Source of the DNA: a virus
Lineage: Duplodnaviria > Caudoviricetes
Strand: one strand, 5' to 3'
Length of the DNA stretch: 29,003 nucleotides
IMG/VR virus record: IMGVR_UViG_3300032225_000841
Location: 1-29,003 of that record
Shown here one piece after another: positions 4,432-21,954 of this stretch. A program made the translations under genes and the position numbers. The notes under the pieces were generated by a model, which was not told where the DNA came from, searched no databases, and saw only the letters and a list, made by a program, of their open reading frames with translations. The stretch's first letter is position 1, and every line of letters starts with the position of its first letter.

Positions 4432-4545
4432 TTGATTTCCTTTCGTTGAGTTTGCTTCTAAAAATTTTAAGTGTCGTAGGTATATCGTTTGTCTTGCATA
4501 GTAATAGTAACTCACACCATCTCTCCCTCCTCGTTGTGTTTGGTT

Positions 4546-5178: not shown

Positions 5179-5318
5179 GCTATTTCCTTTAGTTTTACTT
5201 GTTCAAGAATGTGTGATGCTAGTGCTACCAAGTCAGGGTCGTTTATAAAATAGAACTCAACCGCCCTATTTAATGCTTGTATGTCGCCTTCGTTTAGTGT
5301 TAGTTGTATTGTTGTCAT
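5175..5318 (-). CDS. small hypothetical protein (47 aa, MTTIQLTLNEGDIQALNRAVEFYF...)
   Basis: Not in ORF track; ATGA overlaps with both neighbours; AAGGA RBS. Confidence 0.7.
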   Translation of the reverse strand: MTTIQLTLNEGDIQALNRAVEFYFINDPDLVALASHILEQVKLKEIA

Positions 5319-5506
5319 GCTGTCATTTCCTTTCTTACTGCGTTGATTGCATCCATCGGGTCTTTTGCCATGATCTGCACTACGTGTGGTTGCCAGTCCC
5401 CACCTGATTCTTTAAGTTCAAACTCAACCTCATGTAGCGCCATTTCGTCAATACTATCCTTGTCTATACATCTGCCATATACATTTCTAAACTCGACCAT
5501 ACTCAT
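5315..5506 (-). CDS. hypothetical protein
   Basis: 63 aa, AAGGAG RBS, ATGA coupling to neighbours. Confidence 0.7.
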   Translation of the reverse strand: MSMVEFRNVYGRCIDKDSIDEMALHEVEFELKESGGDWQPHVVQIMAKDPMDAINAVRKEMTA

Positions 5507-5916
5507 GCTAGTTCTCCTTCGGTTGTTAAGATTGGTTTCATTTGGTTCTCATCTACGCACACATCTATGCTTCGGTTAATACTGGTGTAGTCCCACAGGT
5601 CGTCATAGTCCCCGTCTTCCTCGATCTCTATGTCCTCTAGTTCTTCACCGATACGGGTAAACCTATACCCTGCGCCCTCGAATAACTCCACCGCCTGTAA
5701 GAAGATTTGGGTATGCGCCTTGACATCAGGGTATGAGTCATACCACTTCACATCATCAGCGTGGAAGAACAGCTTGTTATCTTCTAGTTTGCTAAGTTCT
5801 TTGAGAGCCTGTGCGGTGTGCTCGTCGTTTGCCACGATCAGCATATTTATATACGCTTCCCTATCTGCGCTATCTTTGAACGCTACTACATATGCTACCT
5901 CTGATCTATACCCCAT
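5503..5916 (-). CDS. hypothetical acidic protein (MGYRSEV... early phage protein)
   Basis: 137 aa, GGGGG RBS-like element, acidic RIGEELEDIEIEEDGDYDD stretch. Confidence 0.8.
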   Translation of the reverse strand: MGYRSEVAYVVAFKDSADREAYINMLIVANDEHTAQALKELSKLEDNKLFFHADDVKWYDSYPDVKAHTQIFLQAVELFEGAGYRFTRIGEELEDIEIEEDGDYDDLWDYTSINRSIDVCVDENQMKPILTTEGELA

Positions 5917-6001: not shown

Positions 6002-6089
6002 AAAAACCTCCTGTATAAAAAAAGATATGTGCCAACATGAAGGCCCATATCAACGCCAACGCTATCCTAGTAATCCAATCGCCATTCAT
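5991..6089 (-). CDS. 32-aa hydrophobic membrane peptide
   Basis: Not in ORF track; ATGA overlap with the upstream gene, GGAGG RBS; MNGDWITRIALALIWAFMLAHIFFYTGGFYGR. Confidence 0.6.
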   Translation of the reverse strand: MNGDWITRIALALIWAFMLAHIFFYTGGFYGR

Positions 6090-6304
6090 AACATTACCCT
6101 CCGTAAGCCTAGTTTAAAGAAGGTCTGCGTGGTGTAGAGATACCCGTCATCCCCTGTTAGATACCGCACCCTAGCTTCCTCGCTTTCCTCATGTAGTTCT
6201 AGTAGTTCGTAGCGTGAGTAGAATCCTTTCCTATCTTTTAGTGTGACCCACTCGTTTTCTTGTACCTCTCTGCCTGTTTTGTTATTGATTACCATTGTCT
6301 TCAT
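6086..6304 (-). CDS. hypothetical protein
   Basis: 72 aa, AGGAG RBS. Confidence 0.75.
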   Translation of the reverse strand: MKTMVINNKTGREVQENEWVTLKDRKGFYSRYELLELHEESEEARVRYLTGDDGYLYTTQTFFKLGLRRVML

Positions 6305-6818
6305 GATGTTTCTCCTGTTGTGTAAGTTGTTTGGGTAGTTGCTTTGGTCGTGGGAATAGCTTGCGTTTGGTAGAGAACTTAGTTCGATATGGTATTGCTT
6401 CGTATCTTTCTAGTAACTTAGCTTTCTCTACGCTATCAACCCAATCAGTCCAGTCCCGTTTAGTTCTGTCTGTGTTTATCGGAGTTGCCTCTCGCTTCTG
6501 TTTGTAGGTGTTTAGTATGTGTCGTGTGTTGAGTAGGCAGTCCAAGTAAGCTAAATAAAACAAGTGCAGTTCGGGGTTGTGCTTTGCGTGGTATTTAGTA
6601 TTGATCTTGATGATGTTGATGTGGTTAGTTAGTGGCCTTATGAGATCGCACCACCTTCGGTATCTGACTTTGTTTTCAATGCGTTGCTTATTGATTTGTT
6701 TCTTACGCTTGGTTACATCTTCTTTTATTTGTTCGATTGTGTTTAGTGGTAGGTTTCGTTTAGTTAGTAAGTTGTGTAACTTGTTTTTTGAAATCTTTGT
6801 GTAAGATGTGTGCCTCAT
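6282..6818 (-). CDS. hypothetical basic protein adjacent to putative origin
   Basis: 178 aa, Lys/Arg-rich, AAAGGAA RBS. Confidence 0.7.
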   Translation of the reverse strand: MRHTSYTKISKNKLHNLLTKRNLPLNTIEQIKEDVTKRKKQINKQRIENKVRYRRWCDLIRPLTNHINIIKINTKYHAKHNPELHLFYLAYLDCLLNTRHILNTYKQKREATPINTDRTKRDWTDWVDSVEKAKLLERYEAIPYRTKFSTKRKLFPRPKQLPKQLTQQEKHHEDNGNQ

Positions 6819-6849: not shown

Positions 6850-7165
6850 TGTCCTAGTTTTGTCCACTTTTGTCCACTTCTGTCCTAGCTTTATTAGCTT
6901 TTGTCCCGTGCTATGGACACCCGCTAGCCCTTATTGTATATGCCTTTGTTGATAGTGTGTTCCGATTTCCAGTAGTTTTTAGGAAAAGATAAACACCAAG
7001 AGGAAAGGGAAGTTCCAAGAATGTCCACTTATATAAGCCTATATATATAAATATCTTTATCTTTAATTATATATATACATTGTGGACACAAGTGGACAGG
7101 ACTCATATAGAATAAGGGTTAGCGGTTGACCATCGGTTTGTCTGAGGGCTAATAAAGCTAGGATT
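6850..7165. other. putative replication origin: iterons, AT-rich core and symmetric inverted repeats
   Basis: TGTCC repeats at 6850/6861/6871/6881/6902/7022 and inverted GGACA at 6915/7084/7094; AT-rich TATA tracts 7030-7080; two inverted-repeat pairs with a common centre at 7023. Confidence 0.6.
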
Positions 7166-7170
7166 TTGTC

Positions 7171-7198
7171 GGACTACTGTATATAACACCAGTAGTCC
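7171..7198. terminator. hairpin GGACTACTG-N10-CAGTAGTCC
   Basis: 9-bp perfect stem just downstream of the 7208-7450 gene; no clear U-tract. Confidence 0.35.
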
Positions 7199-7207
7199 CA
7201 TGTTTCA

Positions 7208-7450
7208 CTATACTCTCGCCATTTCCCATTCCTTTCTGTGTATCTCTGCGAGCCTTATAGTGGTCATAGCGACCCATTCGCCATCGAGTTGATCCTCCCC
7301 CCTTAACTTCATGACAGCGTTGATAGCGGGCTTGCTATGGGCATAGATTTGGGGTTTGTTTTTTGTGTTGCGCTTGAACTCCATGATGAGTCCATCTTTT
7401 TTGTATACAACTACAAAGCCTACGGGGTTGCGTTTAGTTTGGTTTAGCAT
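7208..7450 (-). CDS. hypothetical protein
   Basis: 80 aa, AAAGGAG RBS. Confidence 0.75.
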   Translation of the reverse strand: MLNQTKRNPVGFVVVYKKDGLIMEFKRNTKNKPQIYAHSKPAINAVMKLRGEDQLDGEWVAMTTIRLAEIHRKEWEMARV

Positions 7451-7493
7451 GGTGTTGCTCCTTTAGTTGAGTTTAGTGATGCGAGGTTAGACA

Positions 7494-7531
7494 CAAAACG
7501 AAACAGCGCAGAAGCCTCGCACTCCTGCGCT
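7494..7531 (-). terminator. intrinsic terminator/attenuator after first early gene
   Basis: Minus-strand stem AGCGCAGGAG/CTTCTGCGCT followed by GTTTCGTTTTG. Confidence 0.5.
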
Positions 7532-7556
7532 TTCCTAACTTCTTTGTAAAGCATGA

Positions 7557-7970
7557 TTAAATCTTCGCTAAGAAAGCCTTGCGTTGTGTTGGTGTGAGTG
7601 CTTTGAACTGTGTAAGTAACTTGGTAACTACATCAGGCTTAGCTTTCGTAGTCGGTTTGGTGGAGGTTTTCTCCACTTGGCTTGGCATATAGTATTTAAG
7701 CATAGCCCTTGCACACTCACTCTCATCACTCGCACCGTTCTTCTTAGCTTCAAAGCCTAGCGAACCTGCATAACTACCTTTGGTAATCTCGATTGTGGGA
7801 ACTCGTTTCTTAATACTGATGAGCCTTGCTATGTTGCTACGCACCTCTAGCTGTGCGTTGATGGTCATGCTGTTAAACACAGGGGCAAACTTCTGCATAG
7901 CATCACCGAGATCAAACCCTGCGTTGATGTGCTTCTCTACTGCATTGATGTAGTTAGTAACTTGTTTCAT
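7557..7970 (-). CDS. first gene of early (leftward) operon, hypothetical
   Basis: 137 aa, AAGGAG RBS, directly behind an extended -10 promoter. Confidence 0.8.
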   Translation of the reverse strand: MKQVTNYINAVEKHINAGFDLGDAMQKFAPVFNSMTINAQLEVRSNIARLISIKKRVPTIEITKGSYAGSLGFEAKKNGASDESECARAMLKYYMPSQVEKTSTKPTTKAKPDVVTKLLTQFKALTPTQRKAFLAKI

Positions 7971-8025
7971 GGTATAGCTCCTTCGTTGTGTATCGGCTTA
8001 GCACAATGCCTTACTCGATACCTCT

Positions 8026-8034
8026 ATTATACCA
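8026..8034 (-). promoter_or_regulatory. extended -10 sigma70 promoter (TGGTATAAT) for leftward early genes
   Basis: Perfect TGnTATAAT about 55 nt upstream of ATG 7970. Confidence 0.6.
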
Positions 8035-8190
8035 AATGGGCTACTAGCCGTAGTATAGATTTAGCCTATTCTGACCCCACTACACCCCCACCAAGCCTAA
8101 TTTGGCTGACCATGCCCACTGCGCCCTAACACTATTCCTCAGCCATAATTTAATTTTTTGTCAAATTTTGTAAAAAAATCACGCAGTCTA

Positions 8191-8206
8191 TGTCAAATCT
8201 TAGACA
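8191..8206. promoter_or_regulatory. operator-like imperfect palindrome TGTCAA-N4-TAGACA
   Basis: Same architecture as the site at 3402-3417. Confidence 0.45.
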
Positions 8207-8336
8207 CAAAAATAGATAATGGGGGTATAAAAGGTACCCATAGGTACCAAAAAGGAACCTTAACTACAACCTGTAGGTATCAAAAGTTTCCCGATCAAGC
8301 AATTCTGCTAAAAAAATAGGCAAAAACAACTAAATA

Positions 8337-8350
8337 TTCCCGATCGGGAA
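8337..8350. promoter_or_regulatory. perfect 14-bp palindrome TTCCCGATCGGGAA
   Basis: Seen directly; partial copy TTCCCGATC at 8288-8296; abuts the promoter below. Confidence 0.5.
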
Positions 8351-8351
8351 A

Positions 8352-8382
8352 TGTTGCAGTGCAACAAAATGTAACGTATACT
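8352..8382 (+). promoter_or_regulatory. sigma70 promoter TTGCAG-N17-TATACT overlapped by palindrome TGTTGCAGTGCAACA (PhaR-box-like)
   Basis: -35 at 8354-8359, -10 at 8377-8382; 15-bp palindrome 8352-8366 with TGC-N3-GCA core. Confidence 0.65.
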
Positions 8383-8428
8383 ATACAAAATGGGAAAATA
8401 GTTTCCCAAACTAAACAAAGGAAAAATC

Positions 8429-8563
8429 ATGTACACACAATTTGAAAAAGCAGTTAAGCAGTACGAAGAGCTTGTAGACCGCGTAAAAGAAGTAAATGAG
8501 TTTTGGCTTCAGTCGACTTTGTCGACAATGAAAGAGTTTTTCAAAATAGCTAAAAACAAATAA
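8429..8563 (+). CDS. 44-aa amphipathic helical protein, putative mini-phasin
   Basis: Not in ORF track; AAAGGAAA RBS, own promoter; MYTQFEKAVKQYEELVDRVKEVNEFWLQSTLSTMKEFFKIAKNK with 3/4 hydrophobic periodicity. CDS is likely; the phasin call is inference. Confidence 0.7.
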   Translation: MYTQFEKAVKQYEELVDRVKEVNEFWLQSTLSTMKEFFKIAKNK

Positions 8564-8572
8564 AATAAATAA

Positions 8573-8660
8573 GGGCAGTTAAGCCGACACAGAAGGATGT
8601 AGCAAGTTAAAATTTTTTCGGCTTTCCTTTTAACGCGCAGTAGCTACCAAATTCTTGCCC
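8573..8660 (+). ncRNA. putative pseudoknotted structured RNA (~88 nt)
   Basis: Nested pairs GGGC/GCCC, AAGGAT/ATTCTT, GTAGC/GCTAC, GTTAAAA/TTTTAAC plus pseudoknot AAGCCGA(8581-87)/TCGGCTT(8618-24). Confidence 0.6.
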
Positions 8661-8667
8661 AACAAAT

Positions 8668-8698
8668 AAAAAACCCCCGGGCGTTTTAAGTCCGGGGG
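8668..8698 (-). terminator. intrinsic terminator of the sRNA
   Basis: CCCCCGG...CCGGGGG stem followed by UUUUUUAUUUG on the minus strand. Confidence 0.75.
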
Positions 8699-8746
8699 CA
8701 AACCTCACACCGATGGCACAACGAAAGGAGAAGTAAAACCACCGGT
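8668..8746 (-). ncRNA. putative anti-Shine-Dalgarno sRNA (~79 nt)
   Basis: Extended -10 TGCTATACT (8761-8753); 5' stem ACCGGUGG/CCAUCGGU with loop UUUUACUUCUCCUUUCGUUGUG; GC hairpin + U6 terminator (8698-8668). Confidence 0.7.
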
Positions 8747-8829
8747 AAAGAAAGTATAGCAAAATAAAAGCAAGTGGTGTACACTACACCCAATCGTGAA
8801 CCCATCCACGCAACCAAAGGGATTAAGAC

Positions 8830-9432
8830 TTGCTACTAGACCATCTAGTTTCAGCAAAAGCAGCAGACTACGCTCCGGAAACACTACCGGACGAGACCCT
8901 TTTCGTCCCCATTAAAGACGCTAGCGTAAAAGAAACTATCGACGCCCAGGTAAATACGGCAGATTGGCTAAAAACCATAACAGATGACGACGACGAGTTG
9001 CTAGATAGAGCGCAAGAACAGCGGGTAGGCGAAGCATTTGGTGCATTAATAACGCAAAGTCCTGATACAAAAGAAAAATTTCTAGAATTAGAACTTCCAG
9101 AAGAGGTAAAAAGCGCTGTGTCTATGGTAACGGCGTATCAATGGAAGTTTGTAGAGCAAGCCCAAGAGTTACGTTCAATGAGCGTGGCCAAAATAGTCAA
9201 AGAAACCGATCACCCCGACGCTCGGATAAGATTAAAAGCATTGGAGTTACTTGGTAAAGTAACCGAAGTAGCGCTATTTACGGATAGAGTTGAAGTAAAG
9301 AAAACAGAACTAAGCGACGAAGACCTAGAAGCGCAAATTAAGAAAAAGTTAGAAAAATACATGGGTGTGGTAGATGTTACAGACGTAACAGACATAGAAG
9401 ATGTAGAAATACCACAAAAAGAAGACAAATGA
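8830..9432 (+). CDS. terS: terminase small subunit (probable)
   Basis: Directly upstream of and ATGA-coupled to terL; C-terminal RLKALELLGK...LFTDRVEV motif typical of TerS; TTG start. Confidence 0.75.
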   Translation: MLLDHLVSAKAADYAPETLPDETLFVPIKDASVKETIDAQVNTADWLKTITDDDDELLDRAQEQRVGEAFGALITQSPDTKEKFLELELPEEVKSAVSMVTAYQWKFVEQAQELRSMSVAKIVKETDHPDARIRLKALELLGKVTEVALFTDRVEVKKTELSDEDLEAQIKKKLEKYMGVVDVTDVTDIEDVEIPQKEDK

Positions 9433-10961
9433 ATCTTGACTTTTTAACCCCGCAAGAAGCTATGGCTGCGCGATTAGCTTTGAAAGACATGACAACAGAA
9501 GAAAAAGTTGCGTTTTTAGAAGAGCTAGAAGAAAAAGAAAGACGGTTTGAATTAAAAAAAGCGCAGACTGATCCAATTTCTTTTGCTAGGGCCGTGTATC
9601 CGGGTTTCAAAGTGGGGCCCCACCACCGCAAACTAGCCAAGATATTTCAAGATGTAGTTGATGGTAAGAAAAAGCGCGTAATTATTAATATTGCACCACG
9701 TATGGGCAAAAGCGAATTCTCAAGCTATTTGTTTCCGGCATACTTTCTAGGTAATTACCCTAATAAAAAAATTATCATGGGAACCCATACGGCAAGCTTG
9801 TCAGAAGATTTTGGACGGCGAGTCCGAAATTTAATTGAGAGCGAAGACTATGAAAAGATTTTCCCAAACACAGTTATATCAGACGATCAAAAAGCCGCAG
9901 GTAAGTGGAGCACTGGTGCTGGCGGGCAGTATTATGCTGCTGGCGTCGGGGGTGCCTTGGCAGGACGAGGCGCTGACTTGTTTGTTATTGACGATCCCCA
10001 TTCTGAACAGGACATGAAGGCAAACAGCCGCTTAGCATTTGACTCGGCGTGGTCTTGGTTTCAAACAGGCCCACTACAACGTCTAATGCCAGGCGGTGCG
10101 ATTATTGTCATTATGACAAGATGGAGCTTGCTTGACCTTACGGGTCGCTTAATTGATTATCAGATTAAAAACCCAAACACAATTCCATGGGAAATAGTAG
10201 AACTGCCAGCAATTGTTAATGCAGACACGGAAGATGAGAAATCGTTGTGGCCTGCGCAGTGGAGTTTAGAAGCACTAAAAAACACCAGAGCGTCTATTGA
10301 CGCACGCTTCTGGAACGCGCAATACATGCAAAACCCAACCGGGGATACTAGTGCCATCATTAAACGCAGCGACTGGCAAATTTGGGAACCTGAAGACCCG
10401 CCTCAAGTAGAATACGTAATTCAGTCTTGGGATACTGCGTTTGAAACAAAAACAACATCTGACTACAGCGCATGCACAACTTGGGGCGTTTGGTATAACG
10501 AAGAAGACGGCAACTCCCCCAATTTAATTCTTCTTGATGCTTTTAAAGACCGGATGACCTTTCCAGAACTAAAAGCTACAGCGCTTAAACACTACGAAGA
10601 ATGGAAGCCAGACGCATTTATAGTGGAGAAAAAGGCCAGTGGAGGTCCACTGATTCAAGAATTAAGGCGTATGGGTATACCCGTAGATGAGTACACACCA
10701 AGCCGCGGTAATGATAAGTTGGCTAGGGTTAACGCGGTATCTGATTTATTTGCCTCAAAAAAAGTCTGGGCTCCAGATAGGCGGTGGGCCAAAGACGTGA
10801 TAGAAGAAATGGCAGCTTTCCCGGTGGGCGAACACGATGACTTTGTGGATACGACAACGCAAGCATTATTAAGATACAGAAATGGTGGGTTTATTAGTTT
10901 AGATACTGACGAGCGTGACGAGCCGTCATACAAATACAGACGAAAGGCAGCGTACTACTGA
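9429..10961 (+). CDS. terL: terminase large subunit
   Basis: Walker A-like APRMGKS, Walker B FVIDDP, coupling motif MTRW, RNase H-like nuclease SWDTA...HDDFVD. Confidence 0.95.
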   Translation: MNLDFLTPQEAMAARLALKDMTTEEKVAFLEELEEKERRFELKKAQTDPISFARAVYPGFKVGPHHRKLAKIFQDVVDGKKKRVIINIAPRMGKSEFSSYLFPAYFLGNYPNKKIIMGTHTASLSEDFGRRVRNLIESEDYEKIFPNTVISDDQKAAGKWSTGAGGQYYAAGVGGALAGRGADLFVIDDPHSEQDMKANSRLAFDSAWSWFQTGPLQRLMPGGAIIVIMTRWSLLDLTGRLIDYQIKNPNTIPWEIVELPAIVNADTEDEKSLWPAQWSLEALKNTRASIDARFWNAQYMQNPTGDTSAIIKRSDWQIWEPEDPPQVEYVIQSWDTAFETKTTSDYSACTTWGVWYNEEDGNSPNLILLDAFKDRMTFPELKATALKHYEEWKPDAFIVEKKASGGPLIQELRRMGIPVDEYTPSRGNDKLARVNAVSDLFASKKVWAPDRRWAKDVIEEMAAFPVGEHDDFVDTTTQALLRYRNGGFISLDTDERDEPSYKYRRKAAYY

Positions 10962-11203
10962 TGTTTAAATATTTGAGAAGATGGTGGAAAGTTAAAAAAA
11001 TGAAACGGGCTATTTGGAGACAGGTAGCGCTAGAGAAAAAACGTAACTTAAAACCTATAGAGCATACACAAGAGGGCGTTAAAGAATGGCTAGAACGCAA
11101 TGAGTTTGGGTTGACGCTTGAGCAGCTTAGCACCCATTGCGTGAGCAAAGTGCCAAAAAACGGAGCTAGAGATTTAAATAGGATGTTAAAAAATGCTAAA
11201 TAA
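10961..11203 (+). CDS. hypothetical basic protein
   Basis: 80 aa, TGATG coupling to terL. Confidence 0.6.
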   Translation: MFKYLRRWWKVKKMKRAIWRQVALEKKRNLKPIEHTQEGVKEWLERNEFGLTLEQLSTHCVSKVPKNGARDLNRMLKNAK

Positions 11204-11752: not shown

Positions 11753-14233
11753 ATGGCAATAGATAAGGGTTTATACCAAGCACCTAGAGGTTTAGCAGAA
11801 GTAGCGCAAGACCAAGCACCAGATATTGAAATTGAAATTGAAGGTGATGACGCTTTTGAATTAGAAATTCAAGACATGGAAGAGGTCGACGGTAGCGAAG
11901 AGTTTAATAAAAACTTAGCCGAGGAAATGGACGATGGAGACATTCAGTCTTTAGCTTCTGAACTATCTGGTGATGTAGACAATGACATCGCTGCCCGTAA
12001 AGACTGGGAGCAGATGTACAAAGACGGTATTACTTTGCTGGGCCTTAAATTTGAAGAACGCGTAGAACCATGGGACGGCGCTTGCGGTGTATTTCACCCA
12101 ATGATTACTGAAGCAGTTGTTCGTTTTCAAGCAGAAGCAATTATGGAAACGTTCCCAGCACAAGGTCCTGTAAGAACGCAGATTGTTGGTAAAGAAACAC
12201 GCGAAAAAATGGAAGCAGCACAGCGTGTTGAGCAAGACATGAATTACCAGCTAACAGAAAAAATGCCTGAGTTTAGAAATGAACATGAGCGCATGCTTTG
12301 GAACTTACCTTCAGCCGGTTCAGCATTTAAAAAAGTGTACTTTGATCCAAACATCGGTCGTCAAATTTCTATTTTTATTCCTGCAGAAGATATTATCCTG
12401 CCATACGGAGCTAGCGAAATTGCATCGTGCCACCGTGTTACGCATCGTATGCGCAAGACCAAACAAGAATTAATTAAACTACAAAAAGCTGGGTTTTATA
12501 AAGATGTTGAGTTAGGCGAACCACAAAAGTTCCGTACTGAAATTCAAGAAAAGAAAGACAAAGAAACAGGTTTTTCTGCGTCTTACGACGATCGGTTTGA
12601 GTTATATGAAGCGCACGTCGACCTTGATCTACCGGGTTTTGAAGATAAAGACGATAGCGGAGAAATGACAGGTATTGCTCTGCCATACGTCGTAACTATG
12701 GTTAGGGGCACAAATGAAATTCTTGCAATTCGTAGAAACTGGAAAGAAGAAGATCCTCTCCGCCTTAAGCGCCAGCACTTTGTTCATTACCAATATATCC
12801 CCGGATACGGCGCTTATGGCTTTGGTTTGTTTCATCTTATTGGTGGGTTTGCTAAATCCGCAACTTCTATTCTCAGACAATTGGTTGATGCGGGTACTCT
12901 TTCCAATTTACCGGGTGGTTTAAAGTCTAGAGGACTGCGCATTAAAGGTGACGATACACCGATTGCCCCCGGAGAATTCAGAGACGTTGATGTTGGTAGC
13001 GGCACAATCCGTGATAATATTCTTCCACTGCCGTACAAAGAACCGAGCGCAGTATTAGCTGGTTTAATGGACAAGATCATTGAAGAAGGTCGTCGCTTTG
13101 CGGCTACTTCCGATATGCAGATTTCTGATATGAGTGCTAACGCACCTGTTGGAACAACGCTTGCAATTTTGGAAAGAACCTTGAAGGTGATGTCTGCCGT
13201 TCAAGCCCGAGTCCATTACGCCTTAAGACAAGAACTCAAGCTGCTTGCTGGCATTATCAGAGATTACACTGACGATGACTACAACTACGAACCAGAAAGC
13301 GGAGACTTCCAAGTCAAAAAGTCCGACTACAGTCATGTGGACGTGCTACCTGTATCCGATCCTAATGCGGCCACCCTATCTCAGAGAGTGGTCCAGTACC
13401 AGGCAGTTATCCAGCTGGCTCAGAGTGCCCCCCAAATTTATAACTTACCCGAGCTCCACAGGCAAATGCTTGACGTTCTTGGAATTAAAAACGCCGACAA
13501 ACTGGTGCCTTTGGAGGACGACCAAAAGCCACGCGACCCTGTAAGCGAAAATATGAACGCATTAAAGGGCAAACCGCTCAAAGCGTTTATATACCAAGAC
13601 CACGAAGCACACATCAAGGTGCATCAGATGGCTATGCAAGACCCATTAGTCCAGCAAATGATTGGCCAAAACCCACAAGCTCAAGCAATTCAAGGAGCTA
13701 TGATGGCGCATATAGCCGAGCATTTAGGTTTTGGATACCGTCAGAAAATCGAACAAGCCATGGGCGCACCGCTGCCAGCACCAGACGCAGAGATGCCAGA
13801 AGACATGGAGATTCAGATTTCTCAGTTAGTTGCACAGGCTGCCCCACAGGTACTAGCGCAATCACAAGCGGTTGTTGCACAGCAGCAAGCACAACAAAAT
13901 CAACAAGACCCAGTAATGCAAGCCCAGCTTATTGACCAGCAAGTTAAACAAGGTGAGTTGCAACGCAAGGTACAAAAAGACGCAGCCGACGAACAGTTTA
14001 GACAAAAAGAACTTGCCCTTAAAGAGCAGCAGCTTAAGCAAGAAGCGTTAAATAAAACTGCAAACATTATGTTGCAAGCAGAAGACAAACGCGTTGGCAA
14101 ACATAAAGCCACTGCAGACGTAGCTATACAAGCCGCCCAGCTACAGCAGACTGAAAAACAGCATAAAGCAGATACTGCGTTAGACGTATACAAGCATCAC
14201 ACCCAGACACCTAAAGGAGGTAGCACCGAGTGA
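11753..14233 (+). CDS. portal protein (P22-like, long Gln-rich C-terminal barrel)
   Basis: 826 aa after terL; acidic N-terminus, FKKVYFD motif, Gln-rich coiled-coil tail. Confidence 0.88.
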   Translation: MAIDKGLYQAPRGLAEVAQDQAPDIEIEIEGDDAFELEIQDMEEVDGSEEFNKNLAEEMDDGDIQSLASELSGDVDNDIAARKDWEQMYKDGITLLGLKFEERVEPWDGACGVFHPMITEAVVRFQAEAIMETFPAQGPVRTQIVGKETREKMEAAQRVEQDMNYQLTEKMPEFRNEHERMLWNLPSAGSAFKKVYFDPNIGRQISIFIPAEDIILPYGASEIASCHRVTHRMRKTKQELIKLQKAGFYKDVELGEPQKFRTEIQEKKDKETGFSASYDDRFELYEAHVDLDLPGFEDKDDSGEMTGIALPYVVTMVRGTNEILAIRRNWKEEDPLRLKRQHFVHYQYIPGYGAYGFGLFHLIGGFAKSATSILRQLVDAGTLSNLPGGLKSRGLRIKGDDTPIAPGEFRDVDVGSGTIRDNILPLPYKEPSAVLAGLMDKIIEEGRRFAATSDMQISDMSANAPVGTTLAILERTLKVMSAVQARVHYALRQELKLLAGIIRDYTDDDYNYEPESGDFQVKKSDYSHVDVLPVSDPNAATLSQRVVQYQAVIQLAQSAPQIYNLPELHRQMLDVLGIKNADKLVPLEDDQKPRDPVSENMNALKGKPLKAFIYQDHEAHIKVHQMAMQDPLVQQMIGQNPQAQAIQGAMMAHIAEHLGFGYRQKIEQAMGAPLPAPDAEMPEDMEIQISQLVAQAAPQVLAQSQAVVAQQQAQQNQQDPVMQAQLIDQQVKQGELQRKVQKDAADEQFRQKELALKEQQLKQEALNKTANIMLQAEDKRVGKHKATADVAIQAAQLQQTEKQHKADTALDVYKHHTQTPKGGSTE

Positions 14234-14442
14234 TTGACAACCTAACGGCTGATTTCATAGCCGCAATGCGCGACAAACTGCGCACAGATATGAATAACTA
14301 CACTGACGATTTGGCAAACGGGCAGTGCACAACTTTTGAGCAGTACAAAGAGCTCTGCGGCGTGATTCGAGGCCTAGCGTTTGCAGAGCGCCACTTACTT
14401 GACCTCGCTGAGTATTTACAGAAAGAAGACCACGATGAGTGA
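14230..14442 (+). CDS. small conserved head-module protein
   Basis: 70 aa, GTGA overlap, AGGAGG RBS, YKELCGVIRGL motif; between portal and GroES-like gene. Confidence 0.75.
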   Translation: MIDNLTADFIAAMRDKLRTDMNNYTDDLANGQCTTFEQYKELCGVIRGLAFAERHLLDLAEYLQKEDHDE

Positions 14443-17963: not shown

Positions 17964-17995
17964 AAAAAACCCAGCTCACAAGGCTGGGTTTTTTT
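17964..17995. terminator. bidirectional intrinsic terminator
   Basis: AAAAAACCCAGC...GCTGGGTTTTTTT between the convergent MCP and HNH genes. Confidence 0.85.
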
Positions 17996-18326
17996 CTTCG
18001 TAGTGGTGGATTCTGTGGCAGTTAGCGCATAGAACTATGCACTTTTTTATTTCTTCGTATGCTTTTTTAAATTGCTTGTTAGAGATTAAACGGTTAACGT
18101 TATGCTCTTTGGTGCGCGGGTCTTCGTGGTGAAAATCTAGTGCTGCTGTGTGGTTAAAACCGCATTTTGTACATTTAAGTGTACGTTTAAATGTATCCCA
18201 CTCTGCTTTTAACCGTGCTTTATTTTCACTTAACCGCTGCCTTGTTTCTTCTTGGTTAGCCAAGTAGTGTTTACGGCTGTACTCCGCATGTTTGGCTTTT
18301 CTTACGTTCGCGTCTTTGTACGGCAT
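17976..18326 (-). CDS. HNH endonuclease
   Basis: CTKCG...LDFHH...KCIVLCANCHRIHH; probable start MPYKD at 18326. Confidence 0.85.
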   Translation of the reverse strand: MPYKDANVRKAKHAEYSRKHYLANQEETRQRLSENKARLKAEWDTFKRTLKCTKCGFNHTAALDFHHEDPRTKEHNVNRLISNKQFKKAYEEIKKCIVLCANCHRIHHYEEKNPAL

Positions 18327-18759
18327 CTGGATGTACTTTATATTTCCAATAGATTGCGTTGCGAAAGCCCCACGGTTGTCCGGGCTGATAGATTTTGAAA
18401 CCCGCATTGATTAACGAGTTTGATGATGCTGGATTGTTTGTTGTATCGGTTATTAACCAATTCCATCCTAGCTTTCTTGCCTGTTTAACTCGCGCCAGTA
18501 TAAGTCTTTTTTGTAAACCGTGTCCAGTATATCCGTCTAATACGCCGGCTCTACATAAATAACCTGTATCGCTCCATTTGATCGAGCGGACCAAACCCGC
18601 AAAAGCGACAGGCTTTCCATCCTCCGCATACGCAATCCACCAATGACCCCGATCCGGTTGATAGGGTGTATCCATTGGAAGTATTTTCTTTTGCAAAAAA
18701 AGCAGTGTGGTTTGAACTGAGGGGACTCGGATGTCCACTTTTTTTATTGTAAATTTCAT
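18271..18759 (-). CDS. GNAT family acetyltransferase
   Basis: YLCRAGV...YTGHGLQKRL (acetyl-CoA motif A), NPASSNSLINAGF (motif B). Confidence 0.85.
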   Translation of the reverse strand: MKFTIKKVDIRVPSVQTTLLFLQKKILPMDTPYQPDRGHWWIAYAEDGKPVAFAGLVRSIKWSDTGYLCRAGVLDGYTGHGLQKRLILARVKQARKLGWNWLITDTTNNPASSNSLINAGFKIYQPGQPWGFRNAIYWKYKVHPDAVQRRERKKSQTCGVQP

Positions 18760-19438: not shown

Positions 19439-19963
19439 ATGACAATGCAAACTGACGTTTTAGCGGCGCACCTAAATCAATCTGGTTTAGCGTATGTTGG
19501 ACGTACTCGTTTAAGGCAAATTACTTTAGCTGGCAATGCTAGCCAAAGCGGTAAAATTGTTTTCTTTGATTGCGTAACTGCTCCCGTTACAAATGCTACT
19601 TATGGGCGTTCTGGTAATACTGTTACCGTGTCTTTAAATGCACACGGGCTTGTTGCCGGTCAAAAAATAGGCATTTCTTATAACAGTTCTGGTAATGTTT
19701 CTGCTACTGACGGAAACTATATTGTTGATACGGCTAGCGCAAATTCATTTACGATCGTAGACCCTAACTCAGGCACTGTAACAAATGCCGGTACAAATTG
19801 CCAATACGTAATTGGCAATAATCGTTGGCTTTCTACATATGAAACTTTGACGGGTTCAACAGCTACTCAACAACTACTAATTCCGGGTGAAGGCATTTTG
19901 TGTTATCAAGGTCTTTACATTTATATGCTTAACATGGGTTTTACAACGATTCATTATGGCTAA
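19439..19963 (+). CDS. virion structural protein with internal FCCH-like beta domain
   Basis: AHGLVAGQKIGI...GNYIVDTASANSFTI resembles the E1-FCCH-like repeat of phage tail proteins; C-terminal IPGEGIL. Confidence 0.65.
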   Translation: MTMQTDVLAAHLNQSGLAYVGRTRLRQITLAGNASQSGKIVFFDCVTAPVTNATYGRSGNTVTVSLNAHGLVAGQKIGISYNSSGNVSATDGNYIVDTASANSFTIVDPNSGTVTNAGTNCQYVIGNNRWLSTYETLTGSTATQQLLIPGEGILCYQGLYIYMLNMGFTTIHYG

Positions 19964-20216
19964 GAAAAAAGGTCCTTCTCTTGCGGTTGGTCGCGGTGAA
20001 AAGCTGCCTGTATCTAAGGGTGCTGGGCTTACCGCCAAAGGTCGTGCTAAATATAATGCGGCAACAGGCAGCAATTTAAAAGCTCCACAGCCCGAAGGTG
20101 GACCACGTAAGAAATCTTTTTGCGCCAGAATGTCTGGAATGCCGGGACCTATGAAAGATGAAAAAGGCCGACCGACTAGGAAAGCGGCTAGTTTAAAACG
20201 GTGGAATTGCAAATGA
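19956..20216 (+). CDS. small basic protein (RKKSFCARM motif)
   Basis: Start MAKKKGPS; GLTAKGRAKYN, RKKSFCARM, SLKRWNC. Confidence 0.8.
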   Translation: MAKKKGPSLAVGRGEKLPVSKGAGLTAKGRAKYNAATGSNLKAPQPEGGPRKKSFCARMSGMPGPMKDEKGRPTRKAASLKRWNCK

Positions 20217-20464
20217 GTACGGATATTAACCCAATTGAAACCGCTAGAGAACTGGCAACACACGCTAATGACATCGAGCATTTACAGGCTGATATGGACA
20301 AACTTGTTAAAGATATGGAAGAAGTTAAAAGATCTTTGGCCGACATTCAGCGCATGTTGTCCGAAAGCGCAGCTAGCAAAAAAGTCTGGCATACAATTTT
20401 TACAGTTGGTGCAGGTTTGATTGGCGGAATTATTGTTTGGGCTTTAGATAGGATTTGGAAATGA
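20213..20464 (+). CDS. coiled-coil + C-terminal TM protein (holin/XhlA-like)
   Basis: Heptad coil then TIFTVGAGLIGGIIVWAL; ATGA coupling. Confidence 0.65.
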   Translation: MSTDINPIETARELATHANDIEHLQADMDKLVKDMEEVKRSLADIQRMLSESAASKKVWHTIFTVGAGLIGGIIVWALDRIWK

Positions 20465-20790
20465 AAGACGACTTAGAAGAAAAATATCCTGGCGCTAAAA
20501 TCACCAGGGGCGGAGCTCAACCTGCTCCTGAAGGATATAGCTCTAACAGAATAGGCGAAAACAAAGTTGAAATGGAAGCACCACGCAATCGTTCCGACGC
20601 CCGTACACTAGCGCCATATGAGGTAAAAGCAGCTAAATTTAGCAGAACTGGTGGTGGCGGTTCATCTGGCGTATTACCAAACGACAGTAAAAGCGGTTTA
20701 GATCGCCCACATTTGTACAATAAAGGCGGCAGAGTTAAGACGTTTAGGCATCATGATGGAATAGCTCAAAGAGGTAAAACCCGTGCCTAG
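20461..20790 (+). CDS. small basic protein with YNKGGRV / DGIAQRGKT motifs
   Basis: ATGA coupled; motifs shared with neighbours. Confidence 0.7.
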   Translation: MKDDLEEKYPGAKITRGGAQPAPEGYSSNRIGENKVEMEAPRNRSDARTLAPYEVKAAKFSRTGGGGSSGVLPNDSKSGLDRPHLYNKGGRVKTFRHHDGIAQRGKTRA

Positions 20791-21133
20791 TACATCTAAA
20801 AAACAACACAACTTTATGGCCGCTGTAGCCAAAAACCCAACTTTTGCTAAGAAGGTTGGAATTAAGTCGGCTGTAGGTGAAGAGTTTGTAAAAGCTGACA
20901 AAGGCAAAAAATTTAAGGAGGGCGGTATGGCTAAAGAAAAAATGCATTCTGAGAAATCAGAAATGGAAATGGACAAAAAACAAGACGTTGCCATGATTAA
21001 AAAAGCTTTTAAGCAACACGATGCTCAAGAGCATAAAGGTAGCAAGGGCACTACGCTCAAGCTTAAAAAAGGTGGCTCTGTAAGGGGCTGTGGTTGTGCA
21101 TCTAAAGGTTTAACCAAAGGAAAAATAGTATGA
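20783..21133 (+). CDS. small Lys-rich protein
   Basis: 116 aa, GTG start, FKEGGM and LKKGGSV motifs. Confidence 0.75.
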   Translation: MPSTSKKQHNFMAAVAKNPTFAKKVGIKSAVGEEFVKADKGKKFKEGGMAKEKMHSEKSEMEMDKKQDVAMIKKAFKQHDAQEHKGSKGTTLKLKKGGSVRGCGCASKGLTKGKIV

Positions 21134-21336
21134 AAATGAAAGAAACAATGGGCCCATCTACAATGGCAAAAGATGTTGAAAAATTTCCTAAATTTGCTAG
21201 TCATGAGTCTGCTACTGCTAAGCATGGCGCAGGCCACAAAGCACACCATGAGTTCTTTAAAGAGCGCGCAGCTGGTAACGCTTTGCACCACGATCATGTA
21301 CAAAAAATGTGCATGGGCGGTAAGGTTTCAAAGTAA
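21130..21336 (+). CDS. small His/Lys-rich protein
   Basis: 68 aa, ATGA coupling, MCMGGKV. Confidence 0.7.
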   Translation: MKMKETMGPSTMAKDVEKFPKFASHESATAKHGAGHKAHHEFFKERAAGNALHHDHVQKMCMGGKVSK

Positions 21337-21566
21337 TGAAAGCTTCTCGTGGAATGGGGGCAATGCTTCCGTCCAAAAGACCTAAATCTGGCAAGTCTGC
21401 AGTATTGCTTAAAAAAGGTGGGAAAGTTGGACTTTACGAAAATATTCATAAAAAGCAAGCTCGCATTGCAGCTGGTTCTGGTGAAAAAATGCGTCCTGTT
21501 GGGGCTAAGGGCGCGCCTACTAAAGCGGACTTTATTAAATCTGCTAAAACTGCAAGGAAAAAATAA
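21336..21566 (+). CDS. small Lys-rich protein
   Basis: 76 aa, TAATG coupling, LKKGGKVGLYENIHKKQARI. Confidence 0.75.
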   Translation: MKASRGMGAMLPSKRPKSGKSAVLLKKGGKVGLYENIHKKQARIAAGSGEKMRPVGAKGAPTKADFIKSAKTARKK

Positions 21567-21742
21567 TGGCCGAGAAGTGGATTCAAAAAGCAATTAAAAA
21601 ACCCGGTGCTTTAAAGGCGTCGCTAGGTGTTGCTAAAGACAAAAAGATTCCGTCAAGCAAACTAGCCGCAGCTGCAAAGAAACCCGGCAAGATGGGTAAG
21701 CGGGCTAGGCTTGCGGAAACCTTAAAAGGATTAAAAAAATGA
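21566..21742 (+). CDS. 58-aa Lys-rich protein (MAEKWIQKAIKKPGAL...)
   Basis: Not in ORF track; TAATG and ATGA coupling fill the gap exactly. Confidence 0.8.
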   Translation: MAEKWIQKAIKKPGALKASLGVAKDKKIPSSKLAAAAKKPGKMGKRARLAETLKGLKK

Positions 21743-21954
21743 GATTACGTTTTTTAGTTAATTGGGTTTTAGGTTTGTTTGAAAAGAAAAAAGATGAGAT
21801 TGATCCTAGAGAAATCGCAGCTTGGCCTTTTCCTGTTCCGAAGAAAAAACGTGAACGCCCCGCTAAAAAAGTTGTTACAAAAAAGCCAGCAGCTAAAAAA
21901 ACTGCAACTAAAAAACCTGCAGTCAAAAAGACGGTTAAAAAGAAAGCAAAGTAA
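21739..21954 (+). CDS. histone H1-like protein (PAKK repeats, AAWPFP motif)
   Basis: PAKKVVTKKPAAKKTATKKPAVKKTVKKKAK tail. Confidence 0.7.
   Translation: MRLRFLVNWVLGLFEKKKDEIDPREIAAWPFPVPKKKRERPAKKVVTKKPAAKKTATKKPAVKKTVKKKAK

Follow-up and report, generated by a model that had tools for sequence, protein, structure and literature searches.

Does the short segment between the two divergent gene arms of this phage encode a small RNA and, if so, on which messages could it act? The window, i.e. the whole stretch of 29,003 nucleotides that was analyzed, is a 29-kb phage contig. Its leftward arm contains the genes for an AAA ATPase, a DUF2201 VWA protein, a DUF3150-like protein and small unassigned products; its rightward arm contains terL, portal, GroES and capsid genes. 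For the segment between them, an earlier note had proposed a minus-strand RNA, whose loop would pair with a ribosome-binding motif shared by early genes and shut off their translation. The left arm is taken to be the early, or replication, arm because of its gene content; in the relative G003 it encodes DNA polymerase A, a SNF2 helicase, DUF927 and nucleases. Judged by terL and capsid protein, the nearest named relatives are the pelagiphages HTVC023P/027P, DSL-LC04, 023Pt_psg01 and MinM2/Pag-Yong1, with a terL identity of 46–53%. Uncultured complete relatives are 61–68 kb long and feature two divergent arms per genome.

A nucleotide search of cultured phages with positions 7000–10000 gave no match, and a promoter-plus-loop pattern was found in 0 stretches of metagenome contigs. 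Relatives were collected at the protein level: with the products of terL and of gene 8830, which precedes it, as queries, 153 viral loci were obtained, 127 of them with sufficient upstream DNA.

Some features located elsewhere in the window may be recorded here. On the minus strand, repeated GGACA/GTGGAC words and an AT-rich palindromic stretch (6850–6900 and 7040–7100) are found in the gap between ORFs 7208–7450 and 6282–6818; this non-coding gap is a possible replication origin. An HNH endonuclease gene (17976–18407, minus) lies on the opposite strand directly after the major capsid gene, and in several relatives similar ORFs, also reversed, come after the capsid gene. A series of short lysine-rich genes (19887–21954, plus) comes after the capsid module.

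The predicted RNA is 79 nt long and is encoded on the minus strand (8668–8746); all the coordinates that the earlier note had assigned to the element proved correct, when re-read from the sequence. Its putative promoter contains a TATACT -10 box (8758–8753), which in the window has the TG-extended form TGCTATACT (8761–8753). The extension, on which the note had relied, is not kept in relatives, while the TAnnnT hexamer is kept, and is invariant across 34 aligned loci. The predicted +1, A8746, is the first base of a stem, whose 5' arm (8746–8739) and 3' arm (8716–8709) are both indicated by covariation, the latter also by the folding preference of the strand. The 22-nt loop enclosed by them (8738–8717) is composed of the anti-Shine-Dalgarno core UCUCCUU and of a GUUGUG extension, which could pair with a CAAC element located upstream in the targets. 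The RNA would end at an intrinsic terminator (8698–8668), kept in relatives, where a GC hairpin (8698–8674) is followed by U6 (8673–8668); no U tract is present on the plus strand at this position. The terminator is missing from the list of the consensus scanner, because the loop limit of the scanner is 8. The strand folds into the structure given in the earlier note: the 79-nt sequence reaches -30.1 kcal/mol (z -2.24), and equally stable shuffles were 6 out of 200. The covariance model R1 recognizes it as a single copy in the window, with a score of 65.8 bits, the window itself belonging to the training set of the model.

The earlier statement that no ORF is present has to be amended: two mechanical minus-strand ORFs (8607–8762 and 8705–8884) overlap the element, both beginning upstream of the predicted +1. 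A small-peptide reading was rejected, as the transcript of the window has no start codon bearing a ribosome site and such a reading is not kept in distant loci. On the plus strand, an ORF of 44 aa (8429–8563) converges on the sRNA terminator; it has no Pfam match, and an Atlas lead, PF05233, is found at 0.88 only. Similar ORFs of 44–47 aa, with a strong ribosome site, lie beside the sRNA in several relatives (L045, 9220–9360; G003, 47133) and are phasin-like by eye.

The whole unit, formed by -10 box, pyrimidine-loop hairpin and terminator, was extracted by an automatic rule from 87 of the 127 loci (64 distinct), and many of the 40 loci missed by the rule carry it, when inspected. Each genome has a single copy of the cassette, located upstream of the gene preceding terL. 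In an alignment of 25 rows, 7 of the 9 stem pairs are changed on both sides and 93.3% of the 225 cells are paired; none of 500 shuffles reaches the same score and slid controls are paired at 28–44%, values to be read considering that the structure was derived from the same sequences and that the rows are related. In aligned relatives the loop is conserved, while the stem sequence varies. Of 40 distinct 5' hairpins, 38 fold better as the minus strand than as the plus strand. Searches with R1 gave one on-site match in each of nine out of ten related records (7 strong, 2 weak; G010 was missed). When 100 of the 153 loci were searched, 58 on-site matches were found at E<=0.005, a number including 20 training rows and many near-duplicates, together with a further 21 weaker ones. 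Nothing better than E 0.78 was found in 39 kb from HTVC023P, DSL-LC04 and MinM2, consisting of stretches of these genomes.

Information on the active strand comes from two loci, L044 and L045, where the cassette is inverted to the plus strand after a tRNA-Pro gene, and features its own TATACT, an 11-pair stem and a terminator. In the inverted cassette the anti-Shine-Dalgarno strand folds with a z of -4.2, the opposite strand with a z of -1.2. Since the anti-Shine-Dalgarno strand moves along with its own promoter and terminator, this strand is taken to be the RNA; the inversion speaks for an RNA acting in trans, rather than for a leader or decoy on the plus strand. The seed is unpaired within the conserved structure, and, as far as the sequence can tell, the element has its own promoter and intrinsic terminator and is non-coding. 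Stem covariation, R1 matches and inverted cassettes bear out the proposed conserved minus-strand sRNA gene, and support the view that the element is a real RNA gene, presumably transcribed.

Members of the family are not uniform. Some retain a bare UCUCCU loop, without the extension; many gain a second anti-Shine-Dalgarno patch 3' of the stem, outside any loop. In L119 and L128 the seed is located in a single-stranded linker that joins two hairpins, and extends across the spacer in the direction of the AUG. In L048 (1947–2028) and L052 (4618–4699), on the minus strand, the loop word is doubled right 3' of the stem, which would provide two seeds per RNA. A distant clade, including L149 (4961–5087, minus) and its relatives, has, at the corresponding position, a longer RNA with four hairpins (z -6.6); the anti-Shine-Dalgarno-like word of L149 is predicted to be paired.

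The region facing the sRNA bears on the time at which it might be made. A divergent -10 box, TACACT (8780–8785, plus), probably serving the rightward operon, stands back to back with the putative sRNA promoter; in 18 aligned loci its T, A, A and T are invariant. The pair of boxes (8753–8785) has no recognizable -35 and a variable spacing, and becomes a palindromic TATACT pair in distant relatives: it is a candidate bidirectional promoter. The leader of the first rightward gene (8795–8821, plus) contains a 4-bp hairpin (8795–8798 with 8807–8810) and a ribosome site (8809–8820), 11 of whose 12 bases are pairable, by inspection, with the sRNA loop. The hairpin is conserved, with compensating variants, and is followed by CAAC and by the ribosome site; the start codon of gene 8830 may be TTG, GTG or ATG in relatives. 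The leader could be an element controlling the translation of the first late gene.

This gene (8830–9432, plus) is a putative terminase small subunit, by its position directly before terL only. The sRNA had been described as lying beside terS: it does adjoin the gene before terL, but the terS name is positional, the protein having no PHROG or Pfam match and no likeness to two annotated terS. Relatives of the protein are encoded in 76 viral loci. In the inverted loci L044 and L045 the RNA points in the same direction as the late genes; this orientation, along with the back-to-back promoters, would fit co-expression with the late operon.

Candidate targets were sought at the starts of both arms. 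The seven motifs listed in the earlier note are all found where it had placed them, each closely upstream of a leftward start codon. Pairing was evaluated by scanning a 25-nt seed against Shine-Dalgarno-anchored starts, produced by a simple custom caller, with one start per frame and accessibility ignored. Among the 27 starts, the best score belongs to the site at 4527–4538, before GTG 4515 (-22.3 kcal/mol, rank 1), followed by 7978–7990, at the start of ORF 7557–7970 (-21.0 kcal/mol, rank 2), and 5512–5526, at the start of ORF 5315–5506 (-18.1 kcal/mol, rank 3). Lower values are reported for 6310–6322, start of ORF 6086–6304 (-16.5 kcal/mol, rank 6), 7458–7469, start of ORF 7208–7450 (-15.8 kcal/mol, rank 7), and 967–979, start of the DUF3150-like ORF 88–960 (-15.1 kcal/mol, rank 9). 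The seventh candidate, 4438–4448, is an exact 11-base loop complement before ATG 4431; all seven are on the minus strand. Because the sites at 4527 and 4438 share one frame (GTG 4515, ATG 4431), the seven sites correspond to 6 leftward ORFs out of 12. The site at 4527 looks like the end of a coding sequence kept in relatives at that place, and may be a coding relic. A candidate early promoter, with the extended -10 TGGTATAAT (8026–8034, minus), can be read upstream of the first leftward gene.

As anticipated by the earlier note, early starts are in most genomes predicted to pair better than late ones. In the window, the seed pairs at -15.5 kcal/mol with the 12 left-arm starts and at -11.6 kcal/mol with the 15 right-arm starts (p 0.001); by duplex energies, early-arm starts outpair late-arm starts in 9 of 11 genomes (p<=0.05). 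Generic Shine-Dalgarno strength shows no difference between the arms in four of these nine (window, G001, G003, G004), while in the other five early starts are stronger in this respect too. No early-over-late difference was detected in G009 and G010, which have only 8 and 5 late starts.

A search for CAACNNAAGGA gave 18 matches, compared to a mean of 7.2 after shuffling, and none of 100 shuffles was as high. The three exact matches located at starts are all leftward, in line with the claim that rightward ribosome sites lack the arrangement; this claim is nevertheless only partly right, as one-mismatch copies precede rightward starts at 8811–8821 (gene 8830), 14208 and 21111. Two small rightward genes, 10961–11203 (after terL) and 14230–14442 (after portal), have start regions ranking 4 and 5 out of 27, and could be late-arm targets.

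The CAAC element was analyzed in five complete genomes. The pattern CAAC-N1-2-AAGGA-N5-11-ATG produces 15 matches (14 sites) on early strands and 0 on late strands, over a background of 120 early and 65 late plain AAGGA..ATG; the contrast corresponds to about p 0.002 by hand, for counts taken at the strand level and orthologues that are not independent. Five anagrams of CAAC score 2, 6, 0, 1 and 8, and half of the matches counted as 6 are the same CAAC sites, shifted; the anagrams are a control for an A/C-rich flank, weaker than a flank shuffle. In the five genomes the element is thus limited to early strands, as proposed, and commoner than its anagrams, and the anagram control supports its being early-specific, beyond mere A/C-richness.

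If loop and sites recognize each other, they should vary together in relatives, as the earlier note had predicted. In a double-centred seed-by-genome matrix, built on 11 genomes and four loop clades, cognate blocks are visible for the early arm but absent for the late one. A larger set comprised 43 loci, each with 6 or more early starts, and 12 loop types, after dropping 4 others, whose core or terminator was undetected: the mean diagonal is -0.70 (permutation p 0.006), for loop types and orthologous starts that are not independent. The signal is found with the core and 3' extension (p 0.006); the 5' side alone is not significant (p 0.10). Nine of the 12 loop types rank within the top four on their own genes, while L133, L140/L141 and L121 are near last. 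Single words behave unevenly: GAAAGG is commoner in clade A starts (27/100 vs 23/167, p 0.009), CGAAGG is not significantly enriched in clade B starts (18/167 vs 7/100, p 0.39), and the nested UCG-to-UCA loop change of L020 and L027 has no matching change in the sites. The predicted covariation is therefore retained as a clade-level tendency (p 0.006), and a loose one, 3 of the 12 types having no cognate preference.

The exact 17-base loop word is found in 39 viral stretches, 16 belonging to the sRNA family and 23 outside it. The latter correspond to about ten distinct contexts, in six of which the complement forms a ribosome site shortly before an ATG. The loop thus mirrors a generally favoured strong start region, so that host or foreign mRNAs could be hit too. 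The notion of a shared address code survives only at the clade level, some members having a bare UCUCCU, the loop complement being ordinary elsewhere, and the site of the first late gene itself matching the loop at 11 of 12 bases. In its strict, private form such a code is ruled out by the non-cognate loop types, by the unmirrored UCG-to-UCA change and by the presence of the loop complement in unrelated phages: the loop-site code is a tendency, not lock and key. Comparative support for the predicted pairing with the phage's own early start sites is good.

The reading towards which this evidence leans is that of a trans-acting anti-Shine-Dalgarno sRNA, lowering the translation of many mRNAs, early ones preferentially. 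An RNA of about 80 nt would be transcribed independently, from its own promoter, and its single-stranded loop would present the anti-Shine-Dalgarno sequence, seeding on AAGGAG and extending into CAAC. Base-pairing over the ribosome-binding sites of many mRNAs would then block 30S loading. Since the loop reaches past the core into the CAAC enriched on leftward genes, early mRNAs would be preferred and most virion genes spared. That a single loop mirrors early ribosome sites suggests that one RNA may turn down many early genes together. With less confidence, the RNA may be made along with the late operon, from the back-to-back promoters, helping to end the early phase; the sRNA would in this case act as an early-to-late switch.

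Other explanations share part of this evidence. The sRNA might chiefly silence host or co-infecting-phage mRNAs with a strong AAGGAG, as a general anti-Shine-Dalgarno weapon, its match to early genes being secondary. Consistent with this, the bare UCUCCU core is the most conserved part, the extension is absent in some members, unrelated phages commonly use the loop complement as a strong start region, and there is a weak likeness to a betaproteobacterial toxic sRNA family (18.4 bits vs a gathering score of 50). Early sites, however, drift towards the cognate loop, while unwanted collateral targets should drift away, and such a primary function appears unlikely. An RNA for latency or superinfection immunity, expressed constitutively from a resident or carrier genome and repressing early lytic genes and the first late gene, would be comparable to c4 of P1/P7, an immunity-type RNA that controls phage development by base-pairing. 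The first early gene (rank 2 out of 27) and the site of the first late gene are indeed among the predicted targets, and a plain -10 box is readable by host polymerase. Yet no integrase or clear repressor was found in the 41 proteins scanned (28 from the G003 early arm, 13 from the window), which include one weak winged HTH, and a terL search of bacterial genomes returned 4 short genome-bin contigs of mixed taxonomy, with no clear prophage; a role in latency is accordingly regarded as quite improbable.

The element could also act in cis, either as the by-product of a bidirectional promoter, with an insulating terminator, or as the antisense partner of a rightward leader coming from ORF 8429; in a variant of this explanation, the plus strand would bear a decoy or relic ribosome site. 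The -10 boxes stand back to back, forming one palindrome in distant relatives; the plus strand, which has no U tract, could allow rightward read-through; and four distant loci (L117, L120, L121, L124) have a plus-strand ATG after the site. The plus-strand peptides of these loci are mutually unlike, however, and no start codon is present there in the window; moreover, a cis function leaves unexplained the G-U stem covariation of the minus strand, the conserved loop and the inversion in L044 and L045. There is thus very little reason to expect a cis element, and its plus-strand variant, with a CsrB-like decoy or a relic ribosome site, is ruled out by the G-U pairs, the U tract, the -10 box and the inversion. 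It is hardly credible, finally, that the RNA is directed to a protein, its loop mimicking the 3' tail of 16S rRNA or binding a pyrimidine-loop protein, and that a third factor shapes both loop and sites. The loop resembles a 16S tail, and differing hosts could yield clade-specific ribosome sites, hence an apparent covariation; the late-arm starts, which are used by the same ribosomes, nevertheless show no cognate blocks. A trans-acting sRNA that prefers early messages is the reading compared below with known systems.

At the gathering threshold, Rfam 15 has 0 matches in the whole window and 0 in 20 related loci; the nearest weak matches rest on the UCUCC word and the terminator. One of them, RF02278 (Betaproteobacteria toxic small RNA), scores 18.4 bits (E 0.13–0.58), without reaching the gathering score of 50. 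According to the available part of its description (PMC4603805), this family shares with the phage sRNA the short length, the UCUCC motif and the intrinsic terminator, and the weak alignment covers both of the latter; it differs in being chromosomal and in having the motif at the extreme 5' end, without an enclosing stem. The c4 antisense RNA (RF01695) is absent from the matches up to E 10. Literature searches, run mainly on titles and abstract openings, retrieved no paper describing this sRNA. No mention of it was found in the available main text of PMC10690425 and of bioRxiv 10.64898/2026.09.22.753630; the family may sit unnamed among the 10,006 candidate viral RNAs from IMG/VR, listed in the supplements of the former.

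Phage RNAs that control development by base-pairing, in some cases at ribosome sites, include P22 sar, lambda OOP, aQ, PreS and VP882 VpdS. In the accessible sections of PMC12197685, these are cis-antisense to one gene, limited to one operon or host-targeting, and none reported there uses a single common loop to reach several start sites of its own phage. A closer likeness is found outside phages, in the alphaproteobacterial NfeR1/alpha-r14 (cuckoo) RNAs, which, in the portion of PMC10746234 available, expose an unpaired anti-Shine-Dalgarno sequence in hairpins with varying stems and repress several mRNAs at their starts. The phage sRNA similarly has an unpaired anti-Shine-Dalgarno loop, a varying stem and a predicted pairing over several starts. 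NfeR1 is chromosomal and contains three hairpins with CCUCCUCCC (same portion of PMC10746234). The phage sRNA, in contrast, is phage-borne, has one hairpin plus a terminator, features a UCUCCUU core with a clade-specific extension, and is apparently directed to its own early arm; several hairpins with CCUCCUCCC loops, as in cuckoo RNAs, are not found in the window RNA, whose one hairpin has UCUCCUUUCGUUG. In its mechanism, the phage sRNA family described here belongs to a known kind; as a family, it was absent from Rfam and from the literature searched.

A resemblance of another type concerns the SAS of cluster K mycobacteriophages. In the part of PMC3203893 available, SAS is an extended ribosome-site motif, limited to the non-structural half of the genome, with one reversed copy lacking a gene start; it is a tight 13-bp repeat, with consensus GGGATAGGAGCCC and 11–19 copies, and its binding by RNA or protein is left open. 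The layout is the same here, with 15 early-strand matches, 0 late ones and one reversed copy, corresponding to the sRNA loop. The consensus GGGATAGGAGCCC is absent from the listed start regions of window and relatives, where the motif is looser and different: the likeness is one of layout, not a sequence comparison. The reversed copy, in addition to what is described for SAS, has its own -10 box, a covarying stem and a terminator. As a separate observation, the early arm of the cultured phage MinM2 (L196, 3850–8560) features a palindromic repeat of the form CGGTTCAGnCTGAACC before many early-gene starts; this repeat is similar to the inverted repeats described for extended SAS, and could serve as a DNA-binding site. 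If true, the reading of an sRNA that pairs with early starts would offer a testable answer to the question raised by Pope et al. in 2011, namely what binds start-associated sequences and why one copy is reversed. The system is small, consisting of an 80-nt RNA and short leaders, and may be tested in a laboratory strain, with no need of phage culture.

Most of the developmental switches known in phages operate on transcription; an anti-Shine-Dalgarno RNA that targets several genes of its own phage, if confirmed, would add a translational layer to phage timing. T4 RegB is known to shut off early mRNAs through their GGAG Shine-Dalgarno sites. RegB is a protein endoribonuclease, while the phage sRNA is an RNA predicted to act by pairing. 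It may be suggested, tentatively and with more doubt than confidence, that the family represents an undescribed and widespread form of phage control, where an RNA of the late operon reads a co-evolved tag on early ribosome sites and shuts the regulon, as a counterpart of RegB and as the trans factor of an SAS-like motif.
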